NCBI GenBank assembly: GCA_001724245.1
Contig: MEDX01000022.1
Coordinates: 1 to 46,690, forward strand
Source of the DNA: Fonticula-like sp. SCN 57-25
Lineage: Eukaryota
Reading direction: 5' to 3'
Length of the DNA stretch: 46,690 bases
The notes beneath the pieces are model-generated. The model was not told the origin of the DNA. It saw nothing but the letters and a program-made list of their open reading frames with translations, and did not search any database. Position 1 is the stretch's first letter. Each line of letters starts with the position of its first letter. A program made the position numbers and the translations under genes. This document shows, one piece after another, positions 519 to 46,562 of this stretch.

Positions 519-1934
519 TTATATAATGAATGCCTCCGCACCGTAGGTCCACGTGTGGTGCATGTGAATGATGTCTGCAAATATAGGCAGCCAGCTTCTC
601 CTCCTCGACTCGCATACCGAGTTGAACTCTACGCACGCGGTGTACCTCTGCGCCATCCACGCGTTCGCGAGGTGCGCGCCGTGCGGCATGATGAGCACGT
701 CGGCGTTCATAAAATGAAAGGTCTGCTCGGGGAACGTCAGCGACGCCATGTCGTGGATGACCGACGCGTCGATCTCGGTTGGATCGGCGGCACGACCGAC
801 AGCGTCCATAAGCTCGTCCACGTAGGTCAGGTGCCGCGATGACGCGTCGCGCCGGTCGTATGCGAGCACGCGAAGAGGGCCGTCGCCGGTGCGCAGGCGG
901 CTTGTGAGCGTGTCGGCGGCGCCGGGAAGCAGGTAGTCAAGGACGCTGCGGCGGTATAAGAGGAAGCCGCGCTCGTGGAAGGCGTCGCCGGGGCCGCGGA
1001 GGAACCGGTCAGAGGCGTCGCGCGCGCTCTCAAAGCGCTCAAAACAGACAAGCTACCATGCACAAAGTGAGCAATAATGATAAGAAAAAATAGTACGTAC
1101 GGGAGGCAAGAGATGGTCGAATAGAAGGCGCGCGTCAGAGACGTTTGCTGCCGTGATGAGTGTCTTTGCGGCATAGTCGCCGAACGTGTTGCGCGTCCAC
1201 GGGTGGAATGGAAACGTGGCGCAGCCAACGCCGTCAAGCTCGTCGGCAGGGCGACCCTCAACGGCACGGGACATGCCTTGGACGAGAAAGGTGGCACGCT
1301 CGAGTGCGAGGGGTGGTGTGAAAGATGAGCGCCACGCTGCGACGGCGATGTGTGGCCAGACAACGTCCGTCAAAAGATGGCCAACATTGCCCGTGTGCGC
1401 AAACATAAGATGAATAGTCGTCCCTTTTACCATGTAGACTGGGGTATAGGCATGTTAATCAACACGCTTGGTTGCAAGCATCAAATGCGTACTGTCCGAT
1501 GTGTCGGCATTTCGAATATCGGCCAGAGCACGGCCCTTGTACTGCCGCGAAACGGGCGCGCCAACGAGCTCGGGGTCGGTCGAGTAGAGTGTGCCGGTTT
1601 TTCCATCGAGACAGACGTTCTCGCCGGTTTTTCCATCGAGACAGACGTTCTCTAGCACGTCGTATGATTCAGAGTAGGGCACGTCGCCAAAAATGTCGAC
1701 GCGGGACGTTGGCGAAATGCTCTCGAGCGAGATCGGCTCTAGAATCGCCTCTGGCAAGTTAAGCGGAAAGGTACATGATGTATTGACAGCGCCCTTTTGA
1801 TGTTCTTCAAAGGCATTTGACGACGGCGCGGCGGATAGCTGCACGCTCGGGAGATGCGTGACGTCCAGGAAGAAGCCGATCGCGAAGACGATCACAAATA
1901 TGAACGCGACGAGGATGCCCTGGTGGACTCGCAT
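519..1934 (-). CDS. Glycosyltransferase family 61 (DUF563)-like type II membrane protein
   Basis: N-terminal TM (ILVAFIFVIVFAIGFFL), NVGHLLTD and IMPHGAHLANAWM motifs; introns 1439-1492 and 1053-1100 join the frames. The true C-terminus probably extends below 519 through a further intron. Confidence 0.75.
1593..1652. repeat. 30-bp perfect in-frame tandem duplication in the GT61 CDS
   Basis: gccggtttttccatcgagacagacgttctc x2, encoding ENVCLDGKTG twice. Confidence 0.95.
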
Positions 1935-2154
1935 CGGCTCTGCTTAACCACCATGCGCGGGCGACCGGTAAAGAAAAAGACAGACGCTCTCGTATTAGCG
2001 CCAAGGCGGCAACCGCGCACCGTGCGTCACCTTAAACACCGCTGGCATGACTCGCCTCCTGACCGCCAAGCCACTTTGCTGACATGAATCGTCTCAGCCA
2101 CCCCTCGATTTGAGACACACAATCGACGATTAGCAAGCAACCAACATCGACACG

Positions 2155-2852
2155 ATGGCGACCGCCGGCTTCCGCATGAACCACAGTGCGTGCTCCTCTC
2201 TTTGAACCGCATTCCGGTGCTTTACTTACACTATATTTTCCTTAGCGATGCTCCGCATCAAGGACCCAGTCCGCTCGCTCGCCTTTTACCGCGATGTCCT
2301 CGGCATGACGTACGCAGATGTTATTTCCCACGATCGCTCGATGCTCATGCCACATGTCAGTCTGTTCCACGAGATGCCCGTCGCGCGCGGCAAGTTCACC
2401 AACTACTTCCTTGCGTACGCCGAGCCGGGCGAGGTCGTCGCGACGGACGCGGCCGAGCTGCACCGTCAGCTCTTTGGCCGCCAGGGCGTCGTCGAGCTTT
2501 GCCAGTGCGCACCGCCGCCGCCCGTAAACGCAAACTGATCAATGTGTAGCAACTGGGGCACGGAGTCGGACGAGGCCTTTGCGTACCACAACGGCAACGG
2601 CGAGCCGCGTGGCTTTGGTACTGTCCTTCTACCTTTATTGTATATTTTGCTGATGATCCTTTAGGTCACATCTGCATCACCGTGCCCGACATCCAGGAGG
2701 CGTGCAAGCGCTTCGAGTCGCTCGGCGTCCGCTTCATCAAGACGCTCGAGGGCGGAATGATGCGTAATATTGCGTTCATTGCCGATCCGGATGGCTACTG
2801 GATCGAGGTCGTGTCGTTCAAGCAGCAGCCGTTCATCCCGGAGAGCGCGTGA
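2155..2852 (+). CDS. GLO1: Lactoylglutathione lyase (glyoxalase I), 5 exons
   Basis: Spliced product [18 protein letters not shown]...ELCHNWGTE...[20 protein letters not shown]...[14 protein letters not shown]; four GT-AG introns. Confidence 0.95.
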
Positions 2853-3192: not shown

Positions 3193-4978
3193 TTAAGCGC
3201 CGCTCTGAGCCGCCCTGAGCCGTGCATTCTCCTCCGCCAGCTCCTGCATACTCGCCCTACACATCCTCTGTTAGCATTACCTATAATATTAAACCACAAC
3301 GCACAGCGTCTCCGTCATGATTCCTTCTGTCCCCCGCCGAAGCGTCTCCATGCGCGCCGTCGCATCGTCCGTCTCGCGCTGCGCGTCCCTCAGCAGCGAG
3401 CGCAGCTCTGCATTTTCGCGCCGCAGCTGTGCCGTCGCCTGCTGCACAGCCTCATCGCCGTCGGCCGTCCTGCTCGCCGCTTCCTCCACCCGCTTCTTCA
3501 GCTCGTCAATCTGCTGCCGCTGCACCTCGACAAGGAAGCGAAGCGAGCGAACGCGCTGGCGGCCACGCTCGGCCGACGCGCGCGGCTCGGGAGACGCCGA
3601 CGCGGCGGGCTCAGTCTGCGTACCAGACTCGGCCACGCGCGGCGGCTGCACAGCCTGCTCATGACCATCAATTGCATTCTCCTGATCCTGATCCTGCTCC
3701 TGGTGAATATCTTGATCCATATGTACAGCACTCTGCTCATTCTGCTGCTCCTGCTCGACCTCTTGCTGCGGCTGTTCCTCGTAGAGAACGCGCAGGATGC
3801 GGCGGTCGACCGGCGGCATGTTTTCCTGGTTGGAGTGCGGCGCGCGTGCGTGCCTAGTGCTGCTCGAGAAGCCGCCGCGGAGGTAGGGCGTTGGCGGAAG
3901 GCGCGCCTCGAGGAGGGCGGCAGGGGCGGGCTGCGTGGCAGCGGCAAGGTCGGCGAGGGCAAGGCGATTCATCATGGAGAGCTGCGCGATGTGCGATTGC
4001 GCAGCGGAGAGGTCAAGGCGGAGACGCGCGACTTCGCGATCAAGCTGAAACAGTAATGTGTCAATAATCATACGCACATACCACATGTGTATATAAACTC
4101 TACATACAGTCCACGTATCAAAATAAAACAAACTTACATTATCAACCCGTCCATCCCATACTGCTTTATCCAGTATCGGCCCCTCTCGTACGCTCTCGTT
4201 CTCCTTCAGTGTTGCGGCCAGGGCCGCGTGCTTGACCGCTGCGTCCTCGACGGCTGCCTTGAGGTGCGCCGTCATCTCCTCAAGCAGCGCCGCCGAATTG
4301 TCCGTGTCCGTACCCACCGCCGTCGACCTCGTCTCCACCGACGCCTGCGTCGCTGCAGACTGCGAGTCCGGAGTGGACTGTGTCCCGCTGTCGACGCTGT
4401 TGCTTAGCTGCGACTCGCTCAGCAGCGGCGCCGGCGCAAGCGGCTCGGCATTCGTGCTCTGACGCTTGCTCGGAATGACAATCTCGATGACATCTTCGTA
4501 GATCGAGTCGGCCTTTCGCTTGACCGATCCCGAAGACGAAGACGATGGTGCCCGCGGAGCCGGCGGGGTGGAGGTGACGCGCGGGCGCGGCGGCGGCGCG
4601 ACCGACGAGCCTACGCTCGAACGCGATGATCCGCCGCTCAGACGCGCAGATTCGCGGCGCGAATCACGCCGCGATTCCGTTGTCGATGTGCTCGACGGCG
4701 CGCTTTTTGACCGCGAGCTCGTTGAAAAGTTAAACTCTTGCGGGATGGTCACGTTGCGCGGGGCGGCCGACGGCGGTGCGGGGCGCGGCGCACGAGCCGC
4801 CTTGTTGTCGTGGAGTTGCGTCAGACGCGCGTTCGCGAGAGATGCGTCAGTGGCATTGACATCTGGTGGCGCGCGCCAAGGGGCAAGGAAAGGCTCGCGT
4901 TAATGCCAAGAACGAAACAAGGAAATCGCGCGTACCGATCTTCTGTAGCCCCCTGACATTTCGACCGGGCGCCGACAT
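3193..4978 (-). CDS. Low-complexity/coiled-coil protein with a TPX2-like TIPQEFNFST motif
   Basis: Long ORF 3289-4752 plus short flanking exons (MSAPGRNVRGLQKI at the start, LASMQELAEENARLRAAQSGA* at the end); Ser/Arg/Pro-rich N-half and heptad-rich C-half. Confidence 0.6.
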
Positions 4979-5403: not shown

Positions 5404-7868
5404 ATGGCCAACGCGCCCCGTGTACGTCCTTTTTTTCTAGCTTTGCCGCGCTTTAATTTTACTATTTCTTTTCTGACGCGCATTTTTGCCTCCTTTTCTT
5501 TTATCATTGCAGGGCGGAAAGGGAAGCAAATGGGTGCCGTTTGAGGCCTTTGTGTCGCAGCATGGCGTGAGCACTGGCGCGCCGAGCGCGACCGATGCTG
5601 ACCAGAGCCGGCCGCCTCGCCCGAACAACGCCGGGTCCCGCCGCCCGCCGGCCGGCAACGGCAAGCGTTCCTATGGCCCGCCTGGTGGTCAGGGCCGTGG
5701 TGGAGCGCAGTACAGCGGTGGCATGTATGCCCCCTTTGGGCAGGTGCCGCTCGATGAGGAGACCCTCAAGATGTACATTCGCGGCCAAGTGTACGTCTCT
5801 TTTCTTTTTGTATGCGGAGAACCTCGTGCTGATTATATCCTTGCTGCGTTCTTGCTGTTAGCGAGTACTATTTTAGCGTGCCGAACCTCGCGCGGGATGT
5901 GTACATCCGCCGCTTGATGGACGCCGAGGGCTTTGTCCCGCTCGAGCAGGTCGCCGCGTTCAACCGCGTCAAGAACCTCACCGACGACGTGAATGTTGTG
6001 CTGGAGGCCATCCAGGATACGCCCGACCTCGAGGTCGTGGACCACAAGATTCGGAGACGGAATGACTGGCAGCGCTTCCTCCTGCCCAGCGTGCAGGGCG
6101 GGTCGCCCTCCATCCCGGCCCTCGAGGAGCCCACTGATAGCCCAAAAATGGTACGAATAGCATAAATGGAGTGGAATTTTATGATGTTGTGACTGGAACT
6201 GTGTCTTTTTGTGGCTGTGTAAGGCATTTTTCGGTTTGTTCTTGACCACTTTTGTTTCGCTCTTGGCACTTTTTCTGACCTCCTTTTTAGACGGCATCTT
6301 CCTCGTCGAGCAGCGTCGCCTCGCTTGACGGCCTCGATGACGAGTCGGAAGAAAAGTGGACTGTTGCCTCTGGCCGCCGCAACTCGCGCCAGCACCGCCG
6401 CTCCTCCTTTAGCAACGCTGCCGGCGACCTTGTCCTCGATGAGGAGCTTGAGAGCGGCAGCATCACGCGCGGCCGCTACTACATGTCTGACGACGACGAG
6501 AGCGACCTTGACGAGCCCTCCTCTGACATTGAGGACGAGTTTTTGGCCAAGCTTGTTATTGTAACGCAGCGCTCTCGGCGAAGCGAAGAGAACGACAAGA
6601 CTGGCGTTGCGTTCCACCGCAAGGCGATGAACGACGAGCTCAGCGACGTCATCAACGACGGTCTTTTGCAGTACGAGAAGCAGCAGCGCAGCCCGCGCGG
6701 CAAGGACCGCAACCGCGGCCGCCGCTTCAACGACCAAAAGGTCGACACGATCAACGAGGAGGAGTTCCAGAGCCTGCAGCGCGTCGCCCCGCGCCCCGCG
6801 CCGTCGCGCAGCCAGCTCGTGCCGTCCGCGAATGTGTCTGCGCCGACGCCGGCCTCGACGCCCATGGCGTACGGCTCGCACCTCGGCGTGACGCCGTCGC
6901 AGTCGTTCATGCTGGGCACGTCGCCCGGCAACTCTGTCGGCCTGTCGACGTCGTTTGGCTCGTCGTCTTCGATGCGCAATTCGTACCACAAGGAGCAGCA
7001 GGCTGCCCACCAGCAGGCGTCGCACCAGTCGCACGGGCAGGGCCGCCGCGGCGGTCAGGGCAAGGGCAACGCCGACAGCGCGCGCAACGCCGACGGCTCG
7101 CTGCGCTTCTACTCGCTGCGCAAGGACAAGCACATCCCGGTGGACCGCCCGAGCAAGCAGAAGACGGCGCACTCGTCGAACCCGCCGTTTGAGGAGCACG
7201 TCGGATGGCTCGTCGGCGAGGCCGACGCCGCGGCGCTCGAGGACGACAAGATCTCGGCGAGCCCGTCGGCGTCGCCGATGCCGTCGCCGTCCAACTCGAG
7301 CCTCTCGACCTCGTGGAAGGGCCCGAGCTCGTTTGAGCCGTCGTCGTTCACTGGGCTGCAGCACCCGTCGCGCGACATTCTCAAGGAGAACGGCTTCAAT
7401 CAGCACAAGTACTACAAGTACCGCTCAAAGGCGCTCAAGGAGCGCAAGCGGCTCGGCGCGGGCATGTCGCGCGAGATGAACACGCTCCTCCGCTTCTGGT
7501 CGTACTTTTTGCGCGACCATTTCAATAAGCGCATGTACAATGAGTTTAAAAAGGTCGCGCTCGAGGACGCCGCGCAGGACTACCGCTACGGCCTCGAGTG
7601 CCTCTTCCGCTTCTACAGCTACGGCCTCGAAAAGAAGTTCCGCCCCGAGGTCGCCCGCGAGTTCCAGGAGCTCGCGCTCCAGGATTACAAGGAGGGTCAC
7701 CTCTACGGTGTCGAAAAGTACTTTGCGTACCTCATGTACAGGCCCGACAAGGAGACCAACAACGTCGAGACCATGCCCGAGCTCCAGGCCGTGCTCGACA
7801 AGTTCAAGTCGCTCGACGACTTTAAGGTCGCCGCGGCGGCTGCGGCGGCTGCGGCCGGCAAGGCGTGA
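5404..7868 (+). CDS. LARP1: La-related protein 1 (La motif + DM15)
   Basis: La motif [33 protein letters not shown]-terminal DM15 region [12 protein letters not shown]...[18 protein letters not shown]...[18 protein letters not shown]; 3 introns. Confidence 0.95.
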
Positions 7869-8187: not shown

Positions 8188-8562
8188 TTACAGGCCGCCC
8201 TTGGGGAGCGTCGCGGCGATGCGCTCGCCAATGATGCCCCACGTCATCCACTCCACCTGGAAGATGATGAACCAGATAATAAACGGAAATGTGACAATGA
8301 CGGCCGCGCCGAGCCCGCGATACACATCTAATTGTTCAATTAAGAAAGGGAAGGGGCAAGAGAAAGGGTCAGCGCATGGCGGTCATCGCGGGATGGGCGC
8401 ACAGTTGCGGGCGGCCTGCGGCGTATCCTCCTTTTTCAAGATCGGGAAAAAGAGCAAAAAGTTAAATATCCACATGAAGGGAAGGAGAAAGAAGCCGGCA
8501 ATGTAGAGCTTGCGCGCCACGGCGACCTTTTGCTCCTCGGGGAGCTTTTCAAACCGCACCAT
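8188..8562 (-). CDS. PSENEN: Gamma-secretase subunit PEN-2
   Basis: About 100 aa: MVRFEKLPEEQKVAVARKLYIAGFFLLPFMWIFNFLLFF...N|YVYRG...IIWFIIFQ..W..WGIIGERIAATLPKGGL; one intron. Confidence 0.9.
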
Positions 8563-8983: not shown

Positions 8984-10000
8984 TTATGCAGAAGGTGTCG
9001 GCGCCGCGCTGCTGTGCTGCTCGATGAGGCTCTTCAAAACTGTAATTTCCTTGCGCAGTCTGCTCTCGGTCGAGTCGCACGAGAGAAGCTCCTGCCTGAA
9101 ATCCTATTGGTACAGCGATGTCAGCACAAAAGAGTCAGCGTGATAGCGCGCGCACCCTTGCGGCCGGCAGGAGCGCCGCGAGCTTGTATGAAAACGACGC
9201 CATGTCATTCTTTTGAATTGCGCTTGAAAGGTCGTTGAGGAGCAACTGGTTGACGATCGGCACGTCAAAGGGCGCGTCGTACGGAAGGTCGATGCACTTG
9301 TGGAAGAGATCCTTGGCTTCGTTGGCGAGTGCGTGCATCCTCTCGCTGGTCGCAGCGCCGCTGGCCGCCTCGGTCGCGCCCGCAGACGCCGCCGCGGTGT
9401 CCTCAGAGTCGATAAACTCGACTTCGGCGACGTGGAATCCGAGCAGATTCCGCTCCTGATGCAGGATGCGGAACCGGCGCAGGCCCTCGCAGTCGACCTT
9501 TCCGTTCAGTGTACCGCCCGATGCCGGCAGGCGCAGCAGCGCCTCCGTACCAATGTCCTCACCCGCCCAGTCTGTGATGAGCTTGATGCGCGACGATGCG
9601 GGCGCAGCGGGATCCACGGGCGGGGCCGGCAGCGGCGACGGCGCCTTGAGCGTGACGACGCCGAATGTCGGGCGATCGCTCTTTACCAAATCAGAAATCA
9701 TAAACCTAAAAGAAAAGACGGAAAGAGAGAAAAAAGAGCGTGAGAATAGTGCGGGGGCGGCGCGACAAAAGAGGCGCACTGATGACGTGGCTCGCAAAGC
9801 GGGAGTGTGGCCTTGGTGCCCGGGAACAGCACCGAGTTGTTTTCAAAGAGCGCGAGGCGGCCATACCGGTCCGAGCCGCCCTTTGCGGGTAACGTAGAAG
9901 GCGAGGAAGAGGAAGAGGGCGTGACGGACATGAAGCGAGCGCCGTGGGAGCGCAGGGCGGCGCCCATCCGCGCCACCGACGCACTCGTCCGCAGCATCAT
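8984..10000 (-). CDS. Lon protease N-terminal (substrate-binding) domain-only protein, likely mitochondrial
   Basis: Arg/Ser/Ala-rich presequence; LALFENNSVLFPG..LPLCEPRH, FGVV, IGTEA, EGLRRFRIL, AEVEFI, FSYKLAALLP, RQELLSCDSTESRL; 2 introns. Confidence 0.8.
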
Positions 10001-10107: not shown

Positions 10108-11466
10108 TTAAAAGTCTACGAGTGAAGCGAGGAGCCCGCCGGCGGTGAGGACAAAGCCCGACGCCTCGAGCCACCACACGCTGAATGACAAGACGGGCCC
10201 GAGGACGGCGCCCATGTGCGTGGCCGCCGGGTTGGCGAAGGCCGGGATCCCGTACTGATCGCCGCCGACGGCCGCGAGCATGGCGGCGAGTAGGAGCGAC
10301 ATGAGCGGCAGCGCAATGCACTGGAGCGCGACGGCGTTGATGTGGAAGAGCGACGGCGTCACCATGGCCTTGAGATTGTTGTACGACATGCGGCCGGGCA
10401 CCTCGGACGCCTTCTTGATGCTGCGCGGGACAGCGTCGAAATAGGCCTGCAGGTACGCGCGGTACGCGAGCAGCTGCACGGCCGCGGAGGCAAGCGCGAG
10501 AGAGCAGCGCACGGTTGAACGCCACGCGACGGGGATGGCCGACCCCACGTGCACCTGGAAGGAGATGGTCGTCAGAAGGGGCAGGATGATGGCCGCGTGG
10601 AGCAAAAACTGCCGAACGAGGCCGGTGTCGGGCGAGTTCAGCGCTTCGAAATGCCAAGTGGCACGGCGGCGGAAGACAATGGAAAAGACGCCGGTGCAGA
10701 AGGAGAGCACGAGGGCGAGCGACAGCTGCATGCTGCTGTACGTCATGCGGAACTCGGACGAGATGGGGAGGTTGGCGACGCGCGTAAAGTCAGCGTACAT
10801 GTCCGCCATCGCCGCGTGGGCTGTCAAGTGAGGGTGATTAGTACAAAATAAATCGAATAGAAAAGACGCACAGCTTTCGAGGTCAAAGTCGAGGATGCCA
10901 GCCGAGGCGCCGGCGTACGCGAGGAGAATGAAAGCAAAGGTCCCGACGGCGATCATGACGGCGCGCTGCGTCTCGCTACGCTGCACCGACGCGCGCATAC
11001 TAGCAATGGCGAGGTTCTTGGACGCGTACACGATCGCGATGCAGAGCCAGATGAGGCCCCAGTCGGTCGACTGCTCCTTGTAGTGCATGATCACGCGGGA
11101 TGCAGCGAGGATGATAAAGGCGCACAGAGAAAACAGGACAGTGCTCTGCAGGGCGTCCCAGCTGTGGCGGTTAGCCAGAAAGCCTTCAGTAGCGCGTGCG
11201 GGAAGGCCGATGCGCGTGCGCTCAAGCTTCAGCTCGCCGAGATCGCTCTTGGCGACAGTCAGCTCGGTCGCCAGCTGCGACAGCGAGGAACCCTTGTTGC
11301 CGGCAGCATTGAGAGGAACGCGAAAGAGCTGGAGCATGTCACTGTCAGACGGCAACTGGTAGTAGTAAATGCCGACCAGAAGCCGCTGCGTAAAATGCAG
11401 GAAATTGCGCAGGCGCCATATTAAGAACACGACGACCACCGAGGCCGTCAGCTGCGTCCCCAGCAT
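10108..11466 (-). CDS. TMEM161: TMEM161 family multi-pass membrane protein
   Basis: MLGTQLTASVVVVFLIWRL...YYYQLPSDSDM, YRAYLQAYFD and VALQCIALP resemble TMEM161A/B; one in-frame intron near 10822-10872. Confidence 0.8.
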   Translation of the reverse strand: MLGTQLTASVVVVFLIWRLRNFLHFTQRLLVGIYYYQLPSDSDMLQLFRVPLNAAGNKGSSLSQLATELTVAKSDLGELKLERTRIGLPARATEGFLANRHSWDALQSTVLFSLCAFIILAASRVIMHYKEQSTDWGLIWLCIAIVYASKNLAIASMRASVQRSETQRAVMIAVGTFAFILLAYAGASAGILDFDLESCASFLFDLFCTNHPHLTAHAAMADMYADFTRVANLPISSEFRMTYSSMQLSLALVLSFCTGVFSIVFRRRATWHFEALNSPDTGLVRQFLLHAAIILPLLTTISFQVHVGSAIPVAWRSTVRCSLALASAAVQLLAYRAYLQAYFDAVPRSIKKASEVPGRMSYNNLKAMVTPSLFHINAVALQCIALPLMSLLLAAMLAAVGGDQYGIPAFANPAATHMGAVLGPVLSFSVWWLEASGFVLTAGGLLASLVDF

Positions 11467-11662: not shown

Positions 11663-12426
11663 ATGTCGAACAATGAGCGCCAAAAATATCTTAAGACGAA
11701 TAATGAAATTATTCGGTCAAATGCCATATTGAGCGGCCAGCTTCGGGCGAGCCAGCAGACGTGTCAGGCTCTGGAAAAGGTGAACCATGAGCTGCAACGG
11801 CAGGCGCAGCGCAGCAGGATGGCGCTGGAAGCGGCCAATGCGCGCGCCGCCGTCGTCCTTGTACGTTTCCGTATTTCTTGATATCGCATTCTAATACATT
11901 ATTCAAACGCAACAGGATGTATCAATAGCGCTGGTGAATGACGTTGCGAGCAGTGTTGTGGCAGCATCGCACACACTTCGGGCGGGGCTGGATAGGCTTG
12001 AGCAACTGAGCGCCGAGCATAGTGCGCGATAATACACTGATAATTTTGGATAATTTACACGCTAACGCAATGAAAGATATGTCACAAGACGAGCAGCCGC
12101 CCGACTCGCCTATCGCTAATGTGGATGTAGCATACAAAGCGCGCAACAAGGCAAGCGGACGCCGCAGCACGATCGGCGGCCGCAGCAAGAGCGGCAAACG
12201 CAACGACGACGCAATGCCAGTGGCGGACCCCGCCGCAGCAGTCGCAGCAAGCATGCACAAGAATGCACTCTCGCCAGTGCCAGAGTCGCCGCCACAACAC
12301 TGCGACAAGGAAAACGCACCGCCGCCGTTGCCTTTGACGCCCGCCAAGCAGCGTGTTTCATATGCAGATGCAGCCAAATCGCCGCCTCGAATCAAGCAGT
12401 CTCTCATGCCGCGCACTACCTTGTAA
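11663..12426 (+). CDS. SGO1: Shugoshin-like protein
   Basis: N-terminal coiled coil KYLKTNNEIIRSNAILSGQLRASQQTCQALEKVNHEL matches the shugoshin pattern (N.EI..N..LS.......L...N..L); degenerate C-terminal RVSYAD; 2 introns. Confidence 0.65.
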
Positions 12427-12510: not shown

Positions 12511-12528
12511 CTCATCGTCGTTGGGAGG

Positions 12529-18896: not shown

Positions 18897-19083
18897 CCCC
18901 ACGAGGTCGAATCACCATGCCGGCGCCCAAGCGTGGAGGACGCGGCGGCGCAGCTGCTGGCGGACGCAAGCCCGCCCCGCGCAGGAGGCAAGAGGAGGAG
19001 GAGGATATTCCCATGGACGACGTTGATAACTGTGCGTTTAGAGGGTTTACTTTCCTTGTCTAACCTTTTTGTTCTTTCCAGTC

Positions 19084-22953: not shown

Positions 22954-23279
22954 ATGGATGAGCTTCTTAAGCAGTTTGATGGCCCGCGCCAGTTTGTGAA
23001 CGACAGCGTTCACTTGCTTCGCCGTTGCGAGAAGCCCGACCGCCAGGGTGCGCAATTGAACGATGGCCTTTTTTCCTGCCCCAATTCGCTAACAATTAAT
23101 GCTCCCGCAGAGTTCCTCAAGATCGCCCAGGCTGTCGCTCTTGGTTTCTTGGTTATGGGCGCGATCGGCTACTTTGTGAAGCTTATCCACATCCCCATCA
23201 ACAACATTATTGTGTACGAATCGGTGCCCTTTTCCTTTGTTGTCGCTAACGACTGTTTTTGATCTACAGAGGTGTTTGA
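22954..23279 (+). CDS. SEC61G: Sec61 translocon gamma subunit
   Basis: [46 protein letters not shown]; 2 introns. Confidence 0.96.
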
Positions 23280-36354: not shown

Positions 36355-37947
36355 TTAGATGAGTGTGATACTTGTGGCAGAGATGGCTCGCTTGTCGACG
36401 AAAAAGTCGACCGAGACGCCGCGGAAGAGCAGGCGGTGCTTGAGGTCGGTGCGTCGCTCAGGGGTCATGGCGGCAAAGACGCCGGCTGGCACGTCGAGCA
36501 GCGACTGGGCAGCGGCGCTGTCGAGCGGGACGGACGTCACAGAGCCGCTCGCGTCGCCAAAGGAGCAGCGAAGCGAATAAAACTGGTCACACAGCGAGGC
36601 ATCCTTGCCACACGAATCGCAGCCTTGCTCCTCAACAGCCTTGGAGCACGCCGGGCTGCAGAGCAGATTAGTACATAAATTGCATTTTCAATGCGCACCA
36701 GAATGTTTTAACGATGGGCTCGGGGCCGTCAATGTCACAGGCTGTCAGCATAAACTCGCCGCTGCATTGCGTCGGCGGGTGCGTTGGCTGGGCGGCGATC
36801 TCGCAGACGGTGTACGCATCGACGGGCTCGTCACGGATCACCGCTGCATCGGTGGAATACTGAACACTCGGCTGCTCGACGGCGCACTTTGCCGCCTCAG
36901 CGCGCAGCTGATTTGCGTACGGGACATTAATGTTGACATCGATCCATGAGCGGAACGTGGTGGACAGCTGCAGCGATCCGCGAAACTCGCCGGCGCGCGC
37001 CTGCGTGACAAACAGCACCGTGGGGCTGCCCGGTGTGTCCCAGCCGTCAGCGCTCGCGCACACGTCGCCCCACAGCGTCAACGTCACAGCCGACCGCGTC
37101 GTGTCGCACACGACAACGTCGCGCTTGCTTAGAGGGCCGCTGCCGTTCCGGCGGTCTATGGCAGATGAACGTGTAAGTAGCAGCAATGGTTCGTGAATAT
37201 TGACGTACTGACTGACTGCACGGGTCCGACCGACGTGACGGCGACCAAGATGGATGAAAGGCGCCCGCTCTTGCTATCAATCTCTTCGAGGTGCGTCCAC
37301 CGGAACGGCTGCACAATGTTGGGGCGCGCGAACCGGTCGCTGCCCGAAAACTCTGCGATGGAGGCATGCTTGCCAAACGACACGTGAAGCTCAAACATGG
37401 TCGTCGTCCAGTCGAGGTCCTGCTGCGCCTCCTGCTGCTGTTGCTGCTTGGGCCGGACTTCGGGGTTGACGATGCGCACTCGAGCGCCGATGGAAAAGTC
37501 GGCGTACTCGTTGCGCGCGTCTGACCAAATGACGACCGTAATCACGCCCGTGTTGTCCTTGATGACGAGCTTGCGCACAAAGCGCTCCATGCCGTCCTTG
37601 CGGCTGGTAAACGAGCGCGGCCCTTCAAACGCCACCACCTTGCCTATGACTGTCACGTTGGTCGCCATGCCAGATAGGTCGGCGATGTCGGCGAGAATCT
37701 CGGCGTTTGCCGCGCGGCCGTCGCCATAGTCGTCTTCCATTTTGTACTTGGCCGCCGGGTTGAACGGCGCGCGCGAGGCCAGCGGCGCATTTCTTTTGCG
37801 GGGAAATAGCACGGGCACCTCGCCGGCGTCGTCGCCGTCTTCAATGGCATCCTCGAATAGCCCGCGCTTGGCGCTCAACGGCGACGTCGGCGACGAGAAG
37901 AAGCGGCCGCGCGTTGTCGCCCGCAGCGGACTCGTAAACGCCGCCAT
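36355..37947 (-). CDS. MEIOB: Meiosis-specific OB-fold protein MEIOB
   Basis: IADLSGMATNVTVIGKVV...RKDGMERF, FSIGARVRIVNP, ILVAVTSVG, TLTLWG, a CxxC..CxxC Zn knuckle (CPAC..CDSC) and FAAMTPERRTDLKHRLL; 2 introns. Confidence 0.8.
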
Positions 37948-38320: not shown

Positions 38321-39521
38321 ATGGGCGATGGGTGGCGGCCGTTCGTGCTCGGCGGCATCGCCTGCTGCACCGCGGAGCTAGGTACTCGTTGCCGTGCGAT
38401 CGCTACTTGACAGCTGACTGTGTATAGTGACATTTCCGATTGACACGACCAAAACGCGCCTGCAAGTTCAGGGCCAGCACACGAGTGCATTCCTGCGCGA
38501 GCTTCACTACCGCAACATGTTCCACGCGCTCTACCGCATTCCGCAGGAGGAGGGATTTGCGCGACTCTATCGGGGGTACGTACAGCTGACTATGTACGTT
38601 TGACTAAGAAGCGCGACACAGACTGCCAGCCGCGCTGTTGCGCCAGTCCATCTACGGGACCCTCAAGCTCGGCATGTACCACAGCCTCAAGCGGTATTAC
38701 CACTGGTTGTCACATCAAAGATCACTAACGCGTGGCGTGTGTGTGCACAGGCGCGTCTACAGCGATTCAAAGAGTGCGTTGACACAAACTATTGTTTTGC
38801 GCATGCTGACGTAGGTTCAGAGGAGTCGATGGCGGCAAACACTGTGATGGCGGTAGTCTCGGGCGGCGTGTCGGCGGCCGTCGCGACCCCCACCGACCGC
38901 ATCAAGCTTCGCATGCAGGCGCAGAGCCCGACAGTGCGCTACACCAGTCTTTTAAACGCCTTTACCACTATCGTCAAGACAGAAGGTTTCGCGGGCCTTT
39001 ACAAGGTGCGCAGCGCACTATACTATTCCCTTTTGCTCACGTCTGCTAGGGAATTGGGCCTACGTCGCAGCGCGCCGCACTCGTGGCCGGCGTTGAGCTG
39101 CCTGTGTACGAATTTGTAAAGCACACGTTAACAGATAAGTATGGGTTCAGCGACACGGCGGGTACGCACTTTTTGTCCAGCTCGGTGAGCGGGTTCTGCA
39201 GTGCGTCCGCCTCGACACCCATCGACGTCGTAAAGGTACTCTTACTGCTGATATTCACGGGTCGCTAAACATATTATTTCAGTCGAGGTATATGAATCAG
39301 GCGATTGGTGAAAAGGAGGCGCTCTACCGCGGGTCGCTTGACTGCTTGATACGAACTGTTCGGACGGAGGGCGTCCGCGCGCTCTACAAGGGGTTTGTTC
39401 CCACGTTTGTGCGGCAGAGTCCCTGGAATATTGCGGTACGGCTCGATTTTTTCATATTGTTCGCTGACTGTGCACGCAGTGCTTTATGACATTCGAGCAG
39501 CTCAAGCGCATCGTTCCCTAG
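38321..39521 (+). CDS. Mitochondrial carrier, SLC25A30/SLC25A14 (KMCP1/UCP5)-like
   Basis: [71 protein letters not shown]; 7 introns including a 23-nt micro-exon. Confidence 0.9.
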
Positions 39522-39588: not shown

Positions 39589-40616
39589 TCACTCTAGCGC
39601 CGCGATAAGTTCCGGCGTCATTGCCTGCTCGGGAGTGCGCTTGGTGGCCAGGCGGCCCTGGCGCCACAGCTTCAGCAGCTCCCTCGCGACGACATTCTCA
39701 TTGTTGCTGTAGGCCGAGACGTACGACGCGGCCGCCTTGGCCCGCTCGTGGGCGTTGCGCACTGCCACACCCAAGCCAACACTATATAATGGTTAGAATG
39801 GCCGCCAAATAGCCAAAAGACAGCGCACGTTGAGAGAAACTCGACGTCGTTCTGGCCGTCACCGAATGCGACAACGAGCGACATGTCGTCGTTGATGCTG
39901 CGCATGAGGCCGGCGAGGCCGTGTCCCTTTTGCACGTCGTTGTCAAGCACTTCCACGAAAAACTCGGCGTTGACGAGGTTGACGCGAGGCCCGGCCTCGA
40001 GGTGGCGCTCGAGCGTAAGACGGCCTTGCTGCACCACGTGTTCGTCCTCCTTGTCAAACAAGAGAAGCACCTTTGTCGACGACCGCCCCTTGAAGGCCGT
40101 AATGTCTGGCACAAAGACGTACGACACCTGTGCGAGGCGCGAGTACTTGTCCTGCTGCCACACGTGCGCCTCGTTTGTCTCGCCGTAGAGGACGTCATCA
40201 ATGTAGAGGTTGACGCACGTGTTGGTTTGCTTGGCCCAGTCAATCAACGAGTCCGAGACGGAGGTCGGCAGCGGGCGGTGAAAGACAAGCGGGCGGCCAA
40301 GCGAGCGCTGCAGTGAGCAATACCCGCCATTGTAAGTCACAAGGTGGCAATCAATCTCCAGCGCCTTCTCATGAATAAGCACGCTCGGCGTCATGCGGCC
40401 GCTCGCGAGAATGATCACAACGCCCTCTTGAGACAGGGCGCGCAGCAGCTCTACCGTCTCCTTGTCAATGAACTTGCGGTCATTCAGCGTTGTGCCGTCC
40501 AGGTCAAGCGCCACATAGCGCAGCCGCGGGCCCTCGTCGCCCAGCGTCATGGTCACCACAGGTCGTCTGCCACGTGGTCGTGAATAAAATGGCGGGAAAT
40601 CATCGCCCGTCATCAC
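39589..40616 (-). CDS. Cof-type HAD-IIB hydrolase
   Basis: LDLDGTTLN, LASGR, VTYNG, VQKGHGL, AFGDGQNDVEFL, GVAVRNA; 1 intron. The start may be 40550. Confidence 0.9.
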
Positions 40617-40703: not shown

Positions 40704-41616
40704 ATGTCCTTTCCCATGGATGCAACGCTAGTTGTGCGTTGCATGTACTGTGTTTTTTGTGCTAATCCCGCGTTGTTCTTAGACGCGCGTGTACGACACG
40801 TATGTCGACCGCCCCCTGGTTCGCATACTGCGGCCGATCGGCGAGCAGATCGACGCCATGTCGAGCAAGGCATGGCCCGTCGGCCGCCTTTTGCTGCTGG
40901 CTCCCATGGCGCTGGCAATGAAGTACCACCAGTATGAGCTCGCCGCTCTCCTTCTCGTCCTGCTGCACGTTGCTGATCGCGTCCACACGAGCGTTCGACC
41001 GGGCGGCGTGCTGGCGGCGGACTTTAACATGCGCGACGCAGACATGATCGCCACTCTTGGCCGCATGCGCTTTACTCTGACCGTGCTTGCCGGCAAAGTT
41101 GTTGTTATTTTAAGCCTGTGGACGGTCCTGATGGTGACCAATGCGCCGCCTGCGCAGAGCCTTGTCCTTTGGTGCACGTGCCTGTCACTGGCCGTCTTTG
41201 AGTGCGCCCACGCCGTTGCGCTCGTCATCGAGCACGTTGATATTGCGGCATCTATCCGAGCGGGCGCCGACGACCCCGAGTGGTCGCACCGCGTGCAGCC
41301 GGCCGTTGAGACGAACGCCCGGCACGCGATCGAGCTCACCGGCATCGCATTTGTCATGCTCGCGCACCGCCATTTCTCGCCGCTTACAAGCACAGTCGGC
41401 TCTGTCGGAATGGTTTTCCTCTGTGTGGCCATCTTTATGGCGGCGCGGTCGCTGCGGCTGGTGGCGGCAAAGTGCCTGCGCGCCGAGATTGCATACCAGG
41501 AGGCGCGTCGCAATGCTGCGGTTGCGCACAAGACGGCCGACCTCCAGGGTGCAGCATCATCCTCTACCTTTGCAAGCGGCGTTCGCATGCCCGAGACAAT
41601 CGCTCCGACTCGCTAG
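40704..41616 (+). CDS. Multi-pass membrane protein resembling a degenerate CDP-alcohol phosphotransferase
   Basis: Short exon MSFPMDATLV, intron, then the ORF to 41616 with about 6 hydrophobic segments; LHVADRVH...LG....GKVV occupies the place of DxxDGxxAR...GxxxDxxxDK. Confidence 0.5.
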
Positions 41617-41686: not shown

Positions 41687-42367
41687 CTAGAGGAGCCTTG
41701 TATGGCTGCTATCATGCATGTCATCGTCGTCCAGAGATATGTGGTCATCAAACACCAAAAGCTCGTGCATGTCATCAAGCTCGCCGCCGCGTTCAAGGTC
41801 AATGATCACTTCAGATTCGAGCATCTTGCTTCGGTTCCTGAGGCACCAAGCTTAGCGACTGTAAAGATGAGCAGATATGCGTACTTTTGGATCATGAAAA
41901 GCAACCGCGCAAGCTGCATGAGGTTACGAAACACCAGCGCAATGGTCCCCCCGACGCCAGCGTCCAGGTCACAGCCTTGTGAAACGAGTGCCAGCGCAAC
42001 GATGCAGACCGCGATTGACAGCACGTCGATTGTCGTCGAGCTGTCAATCGGCATCCGCACCCCAACCGCAAAGAGCCGCAGTGTCGTCTCGGTAATGATA
42101 ACCAGGTTCACTGCAATGTCCAGGACGATAAAGGTCGCGGACGGGCTGCGCAGCACGTCAGTTGGTCGGTTAACCAGCGAGGACCTCGTACCAAGGCATG
42201 ATGAAGGACCAGGCAACGGTCACAAAGTTCAGGAGGGCAACCATCACGTAGAATATTAAGAAGGCTCGCGTCGACGAAACGCGAATAATCGTCCCCCGCA
42301 GGTTTTCCGAAAACGACATGTGTCCGCCGGACGGCGTCCCGGACATGTCGAGCGTCCGCGACGCCAT
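41687..42367 (-). CDS. Small 4-TM voltage-sensor/ion-transport-like protein
   Basis: Four TM helices, ETTLRL in S2, IDVL in S3, S4-like LVFRNLMQLARL, acidic C-terminal tail; 2 introns. Confidence 0.65.
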
Positions 42368-42380
42368 TTTTGATAGCGCA

Positions 42381-42426: not shown

Positions 42427-42484
42427 TCCGTCAGATTTGCCGCCAAAATCCAAAAAAGTGACGGTTTCTCTGCATCAGGGCGCA

Positions 42485-44130
42485 ATGGCGGCGGCTGGCA
42501 GCACGTTCTCCGCGGTGACCCGCGGGACGATGGTGCGCTGGTCGTTTGACGGCAAGCGGGTTGCGTGCATTGCCAGCAAAACCCTTTATGTTTTCGACGG
42601 CTTGACGGCTGCTCTGGAGGCAAAGTGGAGCATGCCCGATGGCGTGCGCTCGCTCTCCTGGTCGCCCAGCGGTGATAAGGTGAGCGTGCTCATTCCGGCT
42701 ACGAATTCATTGTTGGTGTACTCTTTGCATTCACAGGACGGCCCAGCGTATCATATCGACGATCCCGCCGGCGGAATTGTTGCGAGCGCGTGGGCGCCGG
42801 ATGGCGCACATATCTTGACATGGACTGACTATGGCGTACGCCTCACTGGTGTGGGTGATCGCTCTTGCTAAACACGCGGGCATGTAGCTCAAGGCGGTAA
42901 TGTGGTTTGTGGAAGGGAAAGCGGGCCCAGTTGGGCAGTTTTTGAATGCAAAGGTGTGGAATGAAAAGGACGCGCTCGGTGGCGACAAGCGTGCGTGATG
43001 GAACCTATCAGTCCCGTTCTAACAATTCATCAGCCGTTTTCGCGTGCAGCACGAGCTCAAATCTCGCTGCGATGGTGGAGCGGACAGAAGGAAAGGACAC
43101 TGTGGCGCTGTACTCGCTGCCGGACTGGCTGCCGCTGCGGCGCGTTCCCTTGACGACGCTTGAGGCGGTCGGGGTCGAGTGGTCGCCCGACGGCCGCCAT
43201 GTGGCAGTCATCGAGAACCCTGTTCCCGTACGGAATTGTCTTTTACTTAATTTTACTTATGCACTGTTTTTAGTATGGCGTACACATTGTGGGCCTTGAT
43301 TGGAATGTGCACATCCTGACGGCGTGCGAGAACGAGCTGGGCGTCCGGTGCGTCCAATGGTCGCCAACAAATCGGCTACTGGCTGTCGGCAGCTATGACA
43401 ATACAATTCGGCTTTTTGAGAGCACACACTGGCAGCTTGCGTGCGCGCTTGCGAGCCCCACTACGACTGTCAGCCCGTCGGCGCGGTGTAAGGTGTTTGT
43501 CGAGGCGCAGCTGATCAACAACCAGCGCGCGAGCTCGCTGTCAGAGTACATGGTGGCGCACGCCGGAGCGACGTCATTTAGCAGTGCGTAAAAATATACT
43601 ATTGCGCCTTTTTGACACTGGGTGTGCAGTTGAGCAGCACAGTAGGGGGACATTCACGCTGCAGGGCCAGCCAAGCGCCAATGCAAACAAGGCGGCCGTG
43701 ATGCGCGGGATCACCTCGGTCGCGTTCAGCCCCGACGGCCGCTTTCTGCTGTCGCGATCAGGTACTCTTTTTTGTACGTTTTTTATGTTAATTTAACCAA
43801 ATCCGCGTAGAATCGACGCCATTTGCCGTCTTTGTGTGGGACCTTTCGCTCCCGCGCATGTGCGCCGTTTTCCTCTTTACGCAGCCGGTCCGCGCCGCCG
43901 CGTGGTGTCCCGAGGGCCTTCCTCTTTTAGCTATGAGCTGCGGCACGACGGCGGTGCACACGTGGAGCCTGCTTCACGGCGCTGTGTCGCACCAGCTCCC
44001 GCAGGCAGACTTTGAGACTCTCGGGCTGACGTGGAGCCCGGCCGGCGACGGCCTGCTTGTTCACGGTCGTGACAACTGGACGACGCTCTCGCTCAAGCGC
44101 GATGCAGAGACAGTCGAGACAAATGCATAA
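42485..44130 (+). CDS. WRAP73: WD40 protein WRAP73/WDR8
   Basis: IDDPAGGIVASAWAPDGAHIL, VEWSPDG, LGVRCVQWSP..RLLAVGSYD, FSPDGRFL...PFAVFVWDL, WSPAGDGLL; 5 introns. Confidence 0.85.
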
Positions 44131-44173
44131 CAATGTACATTAATCAATCGCAATATAATACACTCTAAATGGC

Positions 44174-46562
44174 TCAGGCTTCGTTCTCTGGCGCCTGAAC
44201 CTCGCCGAGGTACTGGCCGAGGCGCTCGGACCGGTAGTCTGCGCGCCGTCCGACCATCTCGCGGAGCACATCGCGTGCGACGCCGGCCGCAAGGCAGTCG
44301 CGAAGCACATTGACGATACTCTCGGGGGTCACAACAAACAGATTGCCCACGTCACGCATGCGCGCAATGCGCTCGTTCACGTCGGGAAGCTTGAACTTTT
44401 TCAAGCACGCCGCGTACTCGCTCAGCTCGCGCGCCAGCAAAAGGCCGCCCGCGGCATTGATGACGAGCTTGTGCCAGTGTGCATCAAACGACCTATAGCG
44501 AAAATTAGCGGGGCAGTATGGATGAAATATGCGTACGAGAAAAAGCTGAAAGCAAGCGCGTGCAGGTACTGCCCGAGATTTGTTTCGTCGAGCGTTGGCT
44601 CCGCGGCCTCCCGTGCGCGCTCCAGCATGTCAATGATAACACGGCACGTCGGCTGTGAACATGGTTAGAAAAGACCAGTATACACAACAATCGTACCGTT
44701 CGTAGATCGCCTCCTGCCTCCTTGGGGCGGTACTCTGCGCGCTTCTGCCGCGACAGAGCTCTCGCAATGCCGCCGGTGACGACACCGAGATGGGCCTCGA
44801 CGACGGAATTCGCCGCGTCCTCGAGCTGCTGAACAAGAATATTCTTGAAGGAAACGCATTCGCGGTACGAGTCGGCCAGTTCGGAGGTGCTGGGCGCGAC
44901 CGTCTGTGAAAAGTGCGTCTGGACAATGCCAATAGCCGCCCCAGCCGCCTGCACGGCCTCGAGCGATGGCACGAGCGTCCCGTCCAGCTTGCCGTCGGCC
45001 GTCAGCGCAAGGTCTTCCTGTACGCTAAACACAACCGTAAGTATAGATAAAAAAAGGCAGGCGTCATACAGGTGCAGGCAGGCCTCGAGGTACTCCTTGA
45101 CGAGCACTGTGAGCGCATTCTTGTAGAGCCTGACAAGAAGCGGGCCGCGGCTGGCAGGGGCGACAAGTGCGACGGCGCGGTCGGACGCGTCGCTGTGCGC
45201 CTGCAGCATGTCCACAGCAGCCTTGGTGGAGATGACGACATTGGCGTGGGCTGCGCCGGCGGCTGGCCGCCTGCGGCCCGCAGTAAATCGCTTGAATGGG
45301 TCAAGCGCAATGGCGACAAGTTGCGCCTGGCAGCGTTCCTCGTCCTGCTCATAGCGTGCGCCGAGATATTTTGAAAAGACCGTATCCAGCAACTTGTTCT
45401 TTTGCATGGCAAGAGTAGCGCCCGGTGTCATCTGCCCCGCGTCGACGAGCAGCGCATCACACTCGGCGTAGCAAGTCGCCAGCGCAGCAAGGTGCGGCTG
45501 TAGGTGGTGCTCGTTGAGGTGGGCATCCAGCGTCCGCGACACAAAGGGGGCAATGTGCGCCTCGACGGCGCGCGAAACAAAGTCGAGGTAAACGGAAAGA
45601 GGGTCGGGAAATACTTCGAAAAGTTCAGGTAAAACCGCCTTGCACGCCGCGCGGACATCGTCGCAGAGTGGCTTGAGGTTTTCAAGCTCGGCGCGGCGCT
45701 TGCGGGGAGGCGGGATAGTGCTCGACCCGCTCGTGTCGTGCGCGAAAAAGGTGTGTATGGCAAGGTACCGCTCCGTGCACCGCGCGCCAACACCAATTCG
45801 GTTCAGTGTCTCGCATATCGTATGGAGCTGAGCGGCGTCGTTGTCGTCGTAAGCGGCGTTCATGCGGTCGAGCAGGCGGCTCTCGGCCGACGCGATAAAC
45901 TCGTCGATGCGCTGCTTGGCGCGCCGCATTGCAGGCGACACAGCATCCTGCGCAACCGTCTGAAGTCGCTTGGCAATGAGGGCCGCTTCAAGTAGCTTGG
46001 TCGAGTCGGCAAAGATCCCTGACGGGGTTCCCTTGCAAAATTCGACAAAGTATGTCACAAGCAGACGCGCATCCTCGGCGCGCCGACGCTGCCGCTCAAG
46101 CGATGCCAGCTGCTCTCCTATGGAAAGCGTCAGTAGAAAGATCAAATATCAGCGACATACCGATGCGCGTTGATCGCCGGCCGGCGTCGCTAAAGGGCAC
46201 CTCCAGTCGGTCCAGTGCCTGCGTCGCCTCGGCCATCTGCTGACCAAGCTGACCAAGCTGCTGCTGGTACGTTTCCTTTACTGATAGACGCTTCCGCTCC
46301 GCGTTCTTGACCTCAATGGCCACCTCTGCGCTCAAGGACTCGGTCTCGGCAAGGGCATTGCGGAGCGCGGCCGCGAATGGTTGGTGCGGAAAGTCTATGC
46401 ACAGCGCGTTAGCATCGGACAGCTTAAAATGCAAGGTAGCGCACCATGCTCGACGTCGTCAACAGGAAAGAGCGTATGCTCGGCCTCCTGCTCGGCTATC
46501 ACCGGCTGAAGGAGCGATGTGGCGAACGCTACCGCGTCAAAGCTGCCCTCGAACCGCTGCAT
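44174..46562 (-). CDS. EXOC5: Exocyst component Sec10 (EXOC5)
   Basis: MQRFEGSFDAVAFATSL start, IGEQLASLERQRRRAEDA..L..YF, EVFPDP, QKRAEYRP, INAAGGLLLARELSEY, GNLFVVTPE, RRADYR; 5 introns. Confidence 0.9.

Follow-up and report, generated by a model that had tools for sequence, protein, structure and literature searches.

The 46,690-base stretch analysed here (contig MEDX01000022.1 of Fonticula-like sp. SCN 57-25, positions 1 to 46,690; hereafter the window) is densely filled with intron-bearing eukaryotic genes, and our subject is the 5' splice site, or donor, of their introns, in which the fourth intron base (+4) is nearly always C. With a GC content of 58% and a coding fraction of 75%, the window accommodates 26 gene models and 82 curated introns, which average 61 nucleotides (nt) in length and number 3.15 per gene; once the introns are removed, each model reads without interruption from ATG to stop. 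The genes encode a GT61 glycosyltransferase, glyoxalase I, a coiled-coil protein, LARP1, PEN-2, a protein with a LON-substrate-binding domain, a TMEM161AB-like protein, a shugoshin-like protein, symplekin, GLTP, an acidic protein encoded at about 18 kb on the reverse strand which we take to be Rpc31-like, Sas10/Utp3, ribosomal protein L4 (RPL4), Sec61-gamma, Arp2, a bacterial-type tryptophanyl-tRNA synthetase (TrpRS), a FERRY-subunit-3-like protein, a lysine/acid-rich protein, IML1/DEPDC5, a MEIOB/RPA-like OB-fold protein, a mitochondrial carrier, a Cof-type HAD hydrolase, two membrane proteins, a WD40 protein and Sec10. These identities derive from Pfam scans of exon translations, together with our own gene models.

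The curated introns are sequence-based models from a single 46.7 kb window, rather than the basis of a genome-wide logo. Models were built with a purpose-written finder which applies dynamic programming to codon usage, constrains donors only by the GT/AG rule, and awards a bonus for branch and acceptor signals; a second run added a donor matrix comprising all positions except +4, which was masked. The first finder runs merged adjacent genes via 'introns' of 200-400 nt, and every run missed in-frame introns and small-exon genes (the carrier gene, the beginning of the WD40 gene, and exons 1 and 2 of Arp2); for all of these, manual models were drawn up with the help of three-frame views and family motifs. 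As part of the curated donors were thus picked by eye with the motif known, we relied on checks that are independent of the motif. An intron was termed 'required' where its retention causes a frameshift or a stop, and its donor was deemed to have no alternative where, among introns of up to 100 nt, no other frame-compatible GT yields an intron of 35-100 nt. A screen for hidden in-frame introns in stretches of low coding character gained the symplekin intron at 13150-13197 and failed to recover those in TrpRS and Sec10; given this insensitivity, 82 is a lower bound and further in-frame introns may exist. Confidence is lowest for three models: the 191-nt RPL4 intron that directly follows the ATG, the 147-nt intron in the coiled-coil gene, and the in-frame intron with a GTATTA donor.

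Across the 82 donors, +4 is C in 79 (96%) and T in three, and is never A or G, amounting to 1.77 bit of information. The most frequent hexamers are GTGCGC (22), GTGCGT (15), GTACGC (12), GTACGT (11), GTACGA (7), GTACGG (4) and GTACTC (3), while GTACTG, GTACAT, GTACCA, GTGCGA, GCACGC, GTATTA, GTATGT and GTATGA occur once each; 60 donors are strict GTRCGY, and 73 combine C at +4 with G at +5. Position +3 is exclusively purine (A in 44, G in 38; 1.0 bit), +5 is G in 75 donors (1.48 bit), and +6 is more relaxed (C 38, T 28, A 11, G 5; 0.32 bit), with no base preferred at +7 or +8 (approximately 0 bit). The exonic positions -3 to -1 carry just 0.05-0.18 bit each, with G at -1 in 39 and A at -2 in 20 of the 82. 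The +3 and downstream positions are coupled, in that +3 G occurs only beside C4 and G5 (38/38), and all nine donors lacking the C4-G5 pair have +3 A (Fisher p = 0.003). At their termini the introns begin with GT in 81 cases and GC in one, and all 82 end in AG, the acceptor trinucleotides being CAG (38), TAG (38) and AAG (6). Median length is 50 nt, 73 introns do not exceed 80 nt, and an exact CTRAY branch motif is found in 55, lying at a median distance of 13 nt before the 3' splice site, and is absent from the other 27. None of the 15 hexamer types begins with RTATCC, as would a U12-type donor. Judged by their GT(GC)-AG termini, restoration of frame and branch motif, these appear to be ordinary, short U2-type introns. 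The preliminary description of this DNA had tallied about 80 introns in 26 genes, nearly all with +4 C, had named GTATTA, GTATGT and GTATGA as the exceptions and found no +4 A, and had remarked on branch points near the acceptor and on several AAG acceptors; each of these statements is borne out, the named exceptions being exactly the three donors with +4 T.

The +4 C donor consensus is confirmed as real by several lines of evidence. In a test which requires no gene model, a CTRAY..YAG unit lies 38-90 nt downstream of 42 of 222 GTRCGY sites, compared with 323 of 4941 other GT dinucleotides (both strands; Fisher p = 1.7e-9), 2 of 52 GTRAGY sites and 8 of 72 GTRTGY sites. Within the gene models, the reading frame demands removal of 70 of the 82 introns, 69 of these 70 having +4 C, and among the 74 introns of up to 100 nt, 28 have donors that are forced for want of an alternative GT, 27 of which have +4 C, the exception being the GTATGT donor in Sec10. 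Around the remaining introns there are 73 such alternative GT sites, and just 19 of them carry C at +4. At 2037 non-donor GT dinucleotides on the sense strand within gene spans, +4 C occurs at a rate of 29.5%, which yields a binomial p of 4e-38 for 79 of 82. Homology provides a further constraint: three Arp2 homologues, out of 120 fetched, break exactly at three introns when aligned by tblastn, and Pfam profile coordinates (compared across junctions by hand arithmetic) are exactly continuous over both TrpRS introns and over junctions in IML1 (31550), SecE (23048), GLTP (16811), HAD (39828), actin (24466), Mito_carr (39236) and Sec10_N (46160), and continuous to within two positions in IML1 (31740), TMEM161AB and symplekin (13150).

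It might be contended that GTRCG was selected during modelling merely because it is frequent, and that the true donors lie elsewhere. Several donors were indeed chosen by eye, a run guided by a donor matrix wrongly placed an intron at a GTGCGT within a WD40 repeat, and 24 of the 53 donor-blind predictions deviate from the curated set, these being mostly wrong picks or long fusions, as opposed to the 29 that are identical to curated introns. Yet +4 C is still present in 36 of the 53 donor-blind introns (68%), and in 41 of the 48 introns predicted with +4 masked (85%), and the forced donors, the continuity of Pfam coordinates and the lack of association between GTRAGY sites and downstream branch/acceptor units all speak against an artefact of this sort, which we regard as highly improbable. 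With just 60 donors among the 222 GTRCGY sites of the two strands of the window, the hexamer by itself is not sufficient to specify a splice site.

The data likewise contradict compositional or mutational drift, whereby a GC-rich genome would accumulate C and G beside GT without selection on +4. The GC content of the window and the abundance of GTGCGC (101 copies on both strands, 22 of them donors) would accord with such drift. However, introns are considerably poorer in GC than exons (44.9% versus 62.7%), and because intron interiors are T-rich, with 20% C (T 42%, G 21%; 41% GC), base composition does not explain the C at +4 or the G at +5; the background rate at non-donor GT, the scarcity of +4 C among frame-compatible alternatives, and the lack of information at +7 and +8 further count against drift, leaving it a very slim prospect. 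A recent spread of one mobile intron family, akin to the introner elements of Micromonas, is contradicted for this window and is the least probable explanation of all. In its favour, the available text on Micromonas gives GYGCGT as the donor of introner elements (PMC3879977), but an all-against-all comparison of the 82 introns returned just seven short matches of 12-17 nt in T-rich tracts. The introns share 62 10-mers relative to 35 +/- 7 in shuffled sequences, those found in at least three introns all being T/C runs, and they split conserved domains of unrelated genes in differing phases. The consensus is thus under selection and not a consequence of base composition; it is common to unrelated, single-copy introns across all 26 genes.

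Table 1. Curated introns of the window in order of position; 'required' and 'no alternative GT' are used as defined in the text, and 'blind' marks introns predicted by the donor-blind finder; the remarks are not exhaustive.
Gene	Position	Strand	Donor	Length (nt)	Remarks
GT61 glycosyltransferase	1053..1100	-	GTACGT	48	required by open reading frame
GT61	1439..1492	-	GTACGC	54	required by open reading frame
Glyoxalase I	2186..2245	+	GTGCGT	60	required; no alternative GT
Glyoxalase I	2310..2360	+	GTACGC	51	in frame, stop-free; not placed by open reading frame
Glyoxalase I	2505..2549	+	GTGCGC	45	blind; required; no alternative GT
Glyoxalase I	2618..2664	+	GTACTG	47	required
Coiled-coil	4045..4191	-	GTACGA	147	in frame; uncertain
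Coiled-coil	4863..4935	-	GTACGC	73	required; no alternative GT
LARP1	5422..5512	+	GTACGT	91	required; no alternative GT
LARP1	5791..5861	+	GTACGT	71	blind; next exon opens La domain at profile position 6
LARP1	6151..6290	+	GTACGA	140	blind; required
PEN-2	8328..8402	-	GTGCGC	75	required; no alternative GT
LON-substrate-binding domain	9104..9155	-	GTGCGC	52	required; no alternative GT
LON domain	9706..9779	-	GTGCGC	74	required; no alternative GT
TMEM161AB-like	10821..10871	-	GTGCGT	51	in frame; blind; Pfam continuous within 1
Shugoshin-like	11861..11915	+	GTACGT	55	required
Shugoshin-like	12022..12076	+	GTGCGC	55	AAG acceptor; required; no alternative GT
Symplekin	12643..12700	+	GTGCGC	58	
Symplekin	12822..12868	+	GTGCGC	47	AAG acceptor
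Symplekin	13150..13197	+	GTGCGC	48	in frame; AAG acceptor; low-coding screen; Pfam within 2
Symplekin	13323..13380	+	GTACGT	58	
Symplekin	14381..14529	+	GTACGT	149	
Symplekin	14685..14764	+	GTGCGT	80	
GLTP	16566..16609	-	GTGCGC	44	blind; no alternative GT
GLTP	16746..16811	-	GTGCGC	66	Pfam GLTP exactly continuous
GLTP	16937..16986	-	GTACGG	50	
GLTP	17046..17106	-	GTACGA	61	
Rpc31-like (presumed)	18045..18151	-	GTGCGT	107	
Rpc31-like	18293..18337	-	GTGCGC	45	
Rpc31-like	18407..18462	-	GTACGC	56	AAG acceptor
Rpc31-like	18529..18586	-	GTACAT	58	
Rpc31-like	18714..18772	-	GTGCGC	59	
Sas10/Utp3	19032..19081	+	GTGCGT	50	no alternative GT
Sas10/Utp3	19751..19819	+	GTACGT	69	in frame
RPL4	22522..22712	-	GTGCGC	191	right after ATG; alternative: 71-nt intron with GTGTAA
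Sec61-gamma	23048..23110	+	GTGCGC	63	in frame; Pfam SecE exactly continuous
Sec61-gamma	23214..23269	+	GTACGA	56	
Arp2	23869..23940	+	GTACCA	72	
Arp2	23988..24059	+	GTACGC	72	stop-containing 24-residue insertion relative to 3 homologues
Arp2	24466..24515	+	GTGCGT	50	tblastn break; Pfam actin exactly continuous
Arp2	24739..24788	+	GTGCGT	50	
TrpRS, bacterial-type	26088..26132	-	GCACGC	45	GC-AG; in frame; tRNA-synt_1b continuous only if removed
TrpRS	26324..26367	-	GTGCGC	44	Pfam exactly continuous
FERRY subunit 3-like	27139..27186	+	GTACGT	48	
FERRY subunit 3-like	27428..27475	+	GTGCGC	48	in frame
FERRY subunit 3-like	28717..28762	+	GTACGC	46	AAG acceptor
Lysine/acid-rich	29432..29478	-	GTGCGC	47	
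Lysine/acid-rich	29632..29676	-	GTACGC	45	
Lysine/acid-rich	30257..30296	-	GTGCGT	40	
IML1/DEPDC5	31068..31120	+	GTGCGC	53	
IML1	31176..31224	+	GTGCGT	49	
IML1	31550..31594	+	GTACGC	45	in frame; Pfam IML1 exactly continuous
IML1	31740..31785	+	GTGCGT	46	Pfam within two positions
IML1	32219..32260	+	GTGCGT	42	
IML1	33374..33425	+	GTACGC	52	
IML1	34124..34236	+	GTACGT	113	
IML1	34537..34583	+	GTACGG	47	
IML1	34707..34853	+	GTACGA	147	in frame
IML1	35352..35511	+	GTGCGA	160	AAG acceptor
MEIOB/RPA-like OB-fold	36656..36698	-	GTGCGC	43	
OB-fold	37156..37208	-	GTACGT	53	
Mitochondrial carrier	38382..38427	+	GTACTC	46	
Carrier	38576..38621	+	GTACGT	46	
Carrier	38694..38750	+	GTATTA	57	+4 T; in frame; basis only branch-site motif and low GC3 (GC at third codon positions)
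Carrier	38774..38814	+	GTGCGT	41	
Carrier	39006..39049	+	GTGCGC	44	
Carrier	39236..39282	+	GTACTC	47	Pfam Mito_carr exactly continuous
Carrier	39436..39479	+	GTACGG	44	
Cof-type HAD hydrolase	39782..39828	-	GTGCGC	47	Pfam Hydrolase_3 exactly continuous
Membrane protein	40734..40782	+	GTGCGT	49	
Small four-helix membrane protein	41838..41884	-	GTACGC	47	
Four-helix membrane protein	42146..42191	-	GTACGA	46	
WD40	42836..42887	+	GTACGC	52	
WD40	42991..43033	+	GTGCGT	43	
WD40	43228..43273	+	GTACGG	46	
WD40	43584..43629	+	GTGCGT	46	
WD40	43762..43810	+	GTACTC	49	neighbouring GTACGT would make a stop
Sec10	44493..44536	-	GTACGC	44	
Sec10	44653..44696	-	GTACGA	44	
Sec10	45025..45069	-	GTATGA	45	+4 T; in frame
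Sec10	46118..46160	-	GTATGT	43	+4 T; blind; Sec10_N exactly continuous; no alternative GT
Sec10	46395..46444	-	GTGCGC	50	

Some placements in Table 1 draw on what we take to be features of the protein families concerned. Glyoxalase I intron 2310..2360 was positioned by a presumed family motif, and the GTACTG donor at 2618 was preferred to GTGGCT on account of what we believe to be a conserved GFGH motif; likewise, the donor of GLTP intron 16937..16986 was taken over a GTTTCC six bases upstream, following the presumed alignment of that family. The coiled-coil intron at 4045..4191 (-) contains an internal GTAAGT, the only one in the window that is positioned as a possible donor, use of which would add 18 residues; this candidate was set aside on the basis of the low GC3 of the added stretch, and the choice is uncertain.

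Twelve of the 82 introns are stop-free and a multiple of three in length (for example, those at 2310-2360, 13150-13197, 23048-23110, 31550-31594 and 45025-45069), such that retention would produce an insertion instead of a truncation, and open reading frame (ORF)-based or prokaryote-style gene callers read through them. The GC-AG intron of TrpRS, itself in frame and stop-free, would place 15 residues before the conserved VPVG motif if retained. For RPL4 (21391-22715, -), the only identical database protein (P0121) begins M-Q, from a GTG within the first intron; this entry stems from prokaryote-style ORF calling of short contigs, and is not usable as an RPL4 gene model. It seems that eukaryotic annotation of the organism is lacking in that protein collection. 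In the WD40 gene, a GTGCGT at 43348 (+) inside a repeat is a perfect match to the consensus, yet is unused as a donor. The membrane protein at 41687-42367 (-), for which the Pfam scan gave no match, comprises 195 residues, with arginines spaced along its fourth helix and a tail that is acidic, and recalls a voltage-sensor-only protein. Elsewhere, a 30-base coding stretch of the GT61 gene (approximately 1590-1650, -) is tandemly duplicated, resulting in a repeated 10-residue unit in the predicted protein, and the intergenic sequence upstream of the first gene contains a short, tandemly duplicated stretch of about 19 bases (300-360, +).

The 5' end of U1 is among the most conserved RNA sequences known, and the extent to which splice signals and small nuclear RNAs (snRNAs) co-evolve is debated. 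The preliminary description suggested that this lineage may have an altered U1 5' end, U6 ACAGA box or set of accessory factors. A search of the window with Rfam returned no match to any family, snRNAs included, at the gathering score or at E <= 1, and the Pfam scans of exon translations detected no splicing-factor gene among those in the window. As to the host, the nearest named Arp2 match, among the best 120, is that of Fonticula alba (80%), and animal and early-fungal RPL4 proteins share about 65% identity with that of the window, one further match among the best 120 reaching 85%. The lineage is therefore a deep one that lacks annotation. Thecamonas trahens is absent from the best 120 matches of both Arp2 and RPL4; a metagenome scan with an RPL4 exon recovered 80 loci, of which none is closely related (top identity 68%) and none entered the analysis, and a protein search with an IML1 exon returned just five weak matches, all fungal.

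Three lineages with pyrimidines at +4 have been studied with respect to U1 by Roy and Bowser (bioRxiv 10.1101/2022.06.08.495308), whose available text we follow here. Mastigamoeba balamuthi prefers GUGCGC donors, and its U1 bears the variant ACGUAC, which pairs with C4. The U1 of T. trahens, an apusomonad, is standard in spite of +4 C, as is that of five Mamiellales with GYGCGY donors; a standard U1 is kept by two of the three +4 C lineages in print, and also by 69 Saccharomycotina with +4 U (bioRxiv 10.1101/2022.06.08.495308), whose example shows that a non-pairing +4 consensus needs no snRNA change.

Against this background, we favour a reading in which the 5' splice-site consensus of this lineage has shifted from GUAAGU to GU-R-C-G-(Y), placing it among the published lineages with +4 pyrimidine donors, and in which its snRNAs would be standard, as in T. 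trahens and the Mamiellales. We put the probability of this reading at roughly 0.5, leaning slightly towards standard snRNAs. In such a system C4 would remain unpaired within a short U1 duplex, the remaining pairs would come from the +3 purine and +5 G, and the RCG core would be chosen by proteins of the U1 small nuclear ribonucleoprotein, or later, at the hand-over to U6 and U5. Standard snRNAs are also consistent with the gene content of the window, as PEN-2, FERRY subunit 3, TMEM161AB and IML1, together with the F. alba Arp2 match, point away from Archamoebae, the one lineage with a compensating U1, and with its gene density, the window being much more compact than the M. balamuthi genome; its nearest named matches fall on the opisthokont side, where the known +4 C lineage, T. 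trahens, has a standard U1.

Several observations weigh against this interpretation. When paired in register, the standard U1 5' end forms a mean of 3.7 contiguous pairs over the 82 donors (-3.4 kcal/mol) and separates them from 2049 decoy GT with an area under the curve (AUC) of just 0.68; these figures show that something other than base pairing to a standard U1 must single out the donors. A U1 with G opposite +4 attains 6.1 pairs, -8.5 kcal/mol and an AUC of 0.95, figures which restate the consensus: because any consensus-complementary sequence would win, the calculation is circular and not a test. The bases found at +4, C in 79 and U in three, both pair with G, and A, the partner of standard U1, never occurs; this dominance of C over U with no A at +4, GUGCGC as the top hexamer with C often at +6, and the absence of both extended pairing and an exon-side signal resemble the description of M. 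balamuthi, and the hexamer, +6 and pairing features do not match the AG|GTGCGT of Micromonas. In addition, the evidence stems from one window of models predicted from sequence, and the placement of the host lineage appears loose.

These observations lend substance to a co-evolved U1, in which G would replace the U or pseudouridine opposite +4 (the ACGUAC type of M. balamuthi), such that GURCG would form at least five contiguous pairs, with C4 recognised through a Watson-Crick pair. The +4 bases are exactly those which pair or wobble with G, +3 is restricted to purines with G solely beside C4 and G5, and because the exon side carries less than 0.2 bit per position, a standard U1 has little to hold; the same top hexamer with +6 C is, moreover, the preference of M. 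balamuthi, a carrier of the variant U1. On the other hand, the advantage of the variant in pairs and AUC is circular, T. trahens and five Mamiellales combine +4 C with standard U1, the U1 5' end being otherwise near-invariant in the available account (bioRxiv 10.1101/2022.06.08.495308), and the window is unlike an archamoebid genome. We therefore treat a co-evolved U1 as a credible competitor that falls short of even odds. Somewhat more doubtful still is the particular scenario in which a non-archamoebid, intron-rich and very compact organism independently placed G opposite +4 in U1, which would constitute a second origin of the ACGUAC type, with the intron set following; if true, the donor code GU-R-C-G would be one that a standard U1 scarcely reads.

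Only a few lineages have been described in which +4 is a non-pairing base, and they are split, one having a compensating U1 and the others lacking it, and a genome with many introns, 96% +4 C and no exon-side signal offers a clean additional test of whether such a C is paired or tolerated. In practical terms, gene finders trained on GTAAGT will mis-annotate this genome, and the in-frame, stop-free introns are easily overlooked.

Searches of the literature on GUGCGU splicing and on Thecamonas introns found nothing beyond the works cited here, and the available portion of Parker et al. (PMC10581693) makes no mention of +4C, +4G, cytosine, GUGCG, GUACG or Basidiomycota. The preliminary description saw the novelty of the window in the near-exclusivity of +4 C, a view that is weakened by comparably strict consensuses in green algae: according to the accessible text of Irimia and Roy, most Ostreococcus introns have an atypical, strict GTGCGTG donor, for which a change in snRNAs was raised as a question (PMC2483917), and Verhelst et al. 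give AG|GTGCGT as the Micromonas donor (PMC3879977). Mamiellophyceae resemble the window in their strict +4 C/+5 G donor, their small, GC-rich genomes and, in the sources as available, their GC-AG variants (one GCACGC here), but differ in being intron-poor and in their strong preference for +3 G, an AG signal on the exon side and an extended GACTGACG branch site. The window, by contrast, has 3.15 introns per gene, +3 A in 44 and G in 38 donors, no exon-side signal, a plain CTRAY, and proteins that are not green-algal; the Mamiellophyceae-type AG| exon signal with GTGCGT(G) is not seen (-2 A 20/82, -1 G 39/82, +3 A 44/82). Saccharomycotina with GUAUGU donors share a near-exclusive +4 base which does not pair with standard U1, and are distinguished by that base being U, by their paucity of introns, and by an A-to-U change that the available text ties to loss of METTL16/SNRNP27K (PMC10581693). 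M. balamuthi resembles the window in its signal, being GC-rich and intron-rich, with GUGCGC as its top donor, a +3 G wobble, +4 C, frequent +6 C and about three introns per gene. Nonetheless, the reported figures for its genome (55% coding, mean intron 137 nt, intergenic distance 1.3 kb, 3.4 introns per gene; PMC8136499, as far as its available text goes) contrast with the 75% coding and 61-nt mean of the window, whose nearest named proteins are not amoebozoan. Given this compactness, identity of the host with M. balamuthi is unlikely. T. trahens shares a stated preference for C at the fourth intron position, and as an opisthokont relative it fits the nearest named matches of the window (Fonticula, early fungi and animals). 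Signals of this kind have thus already been described, and the new element may be another, seemingly unrelated, intron-rich carrier of +4 C donors.

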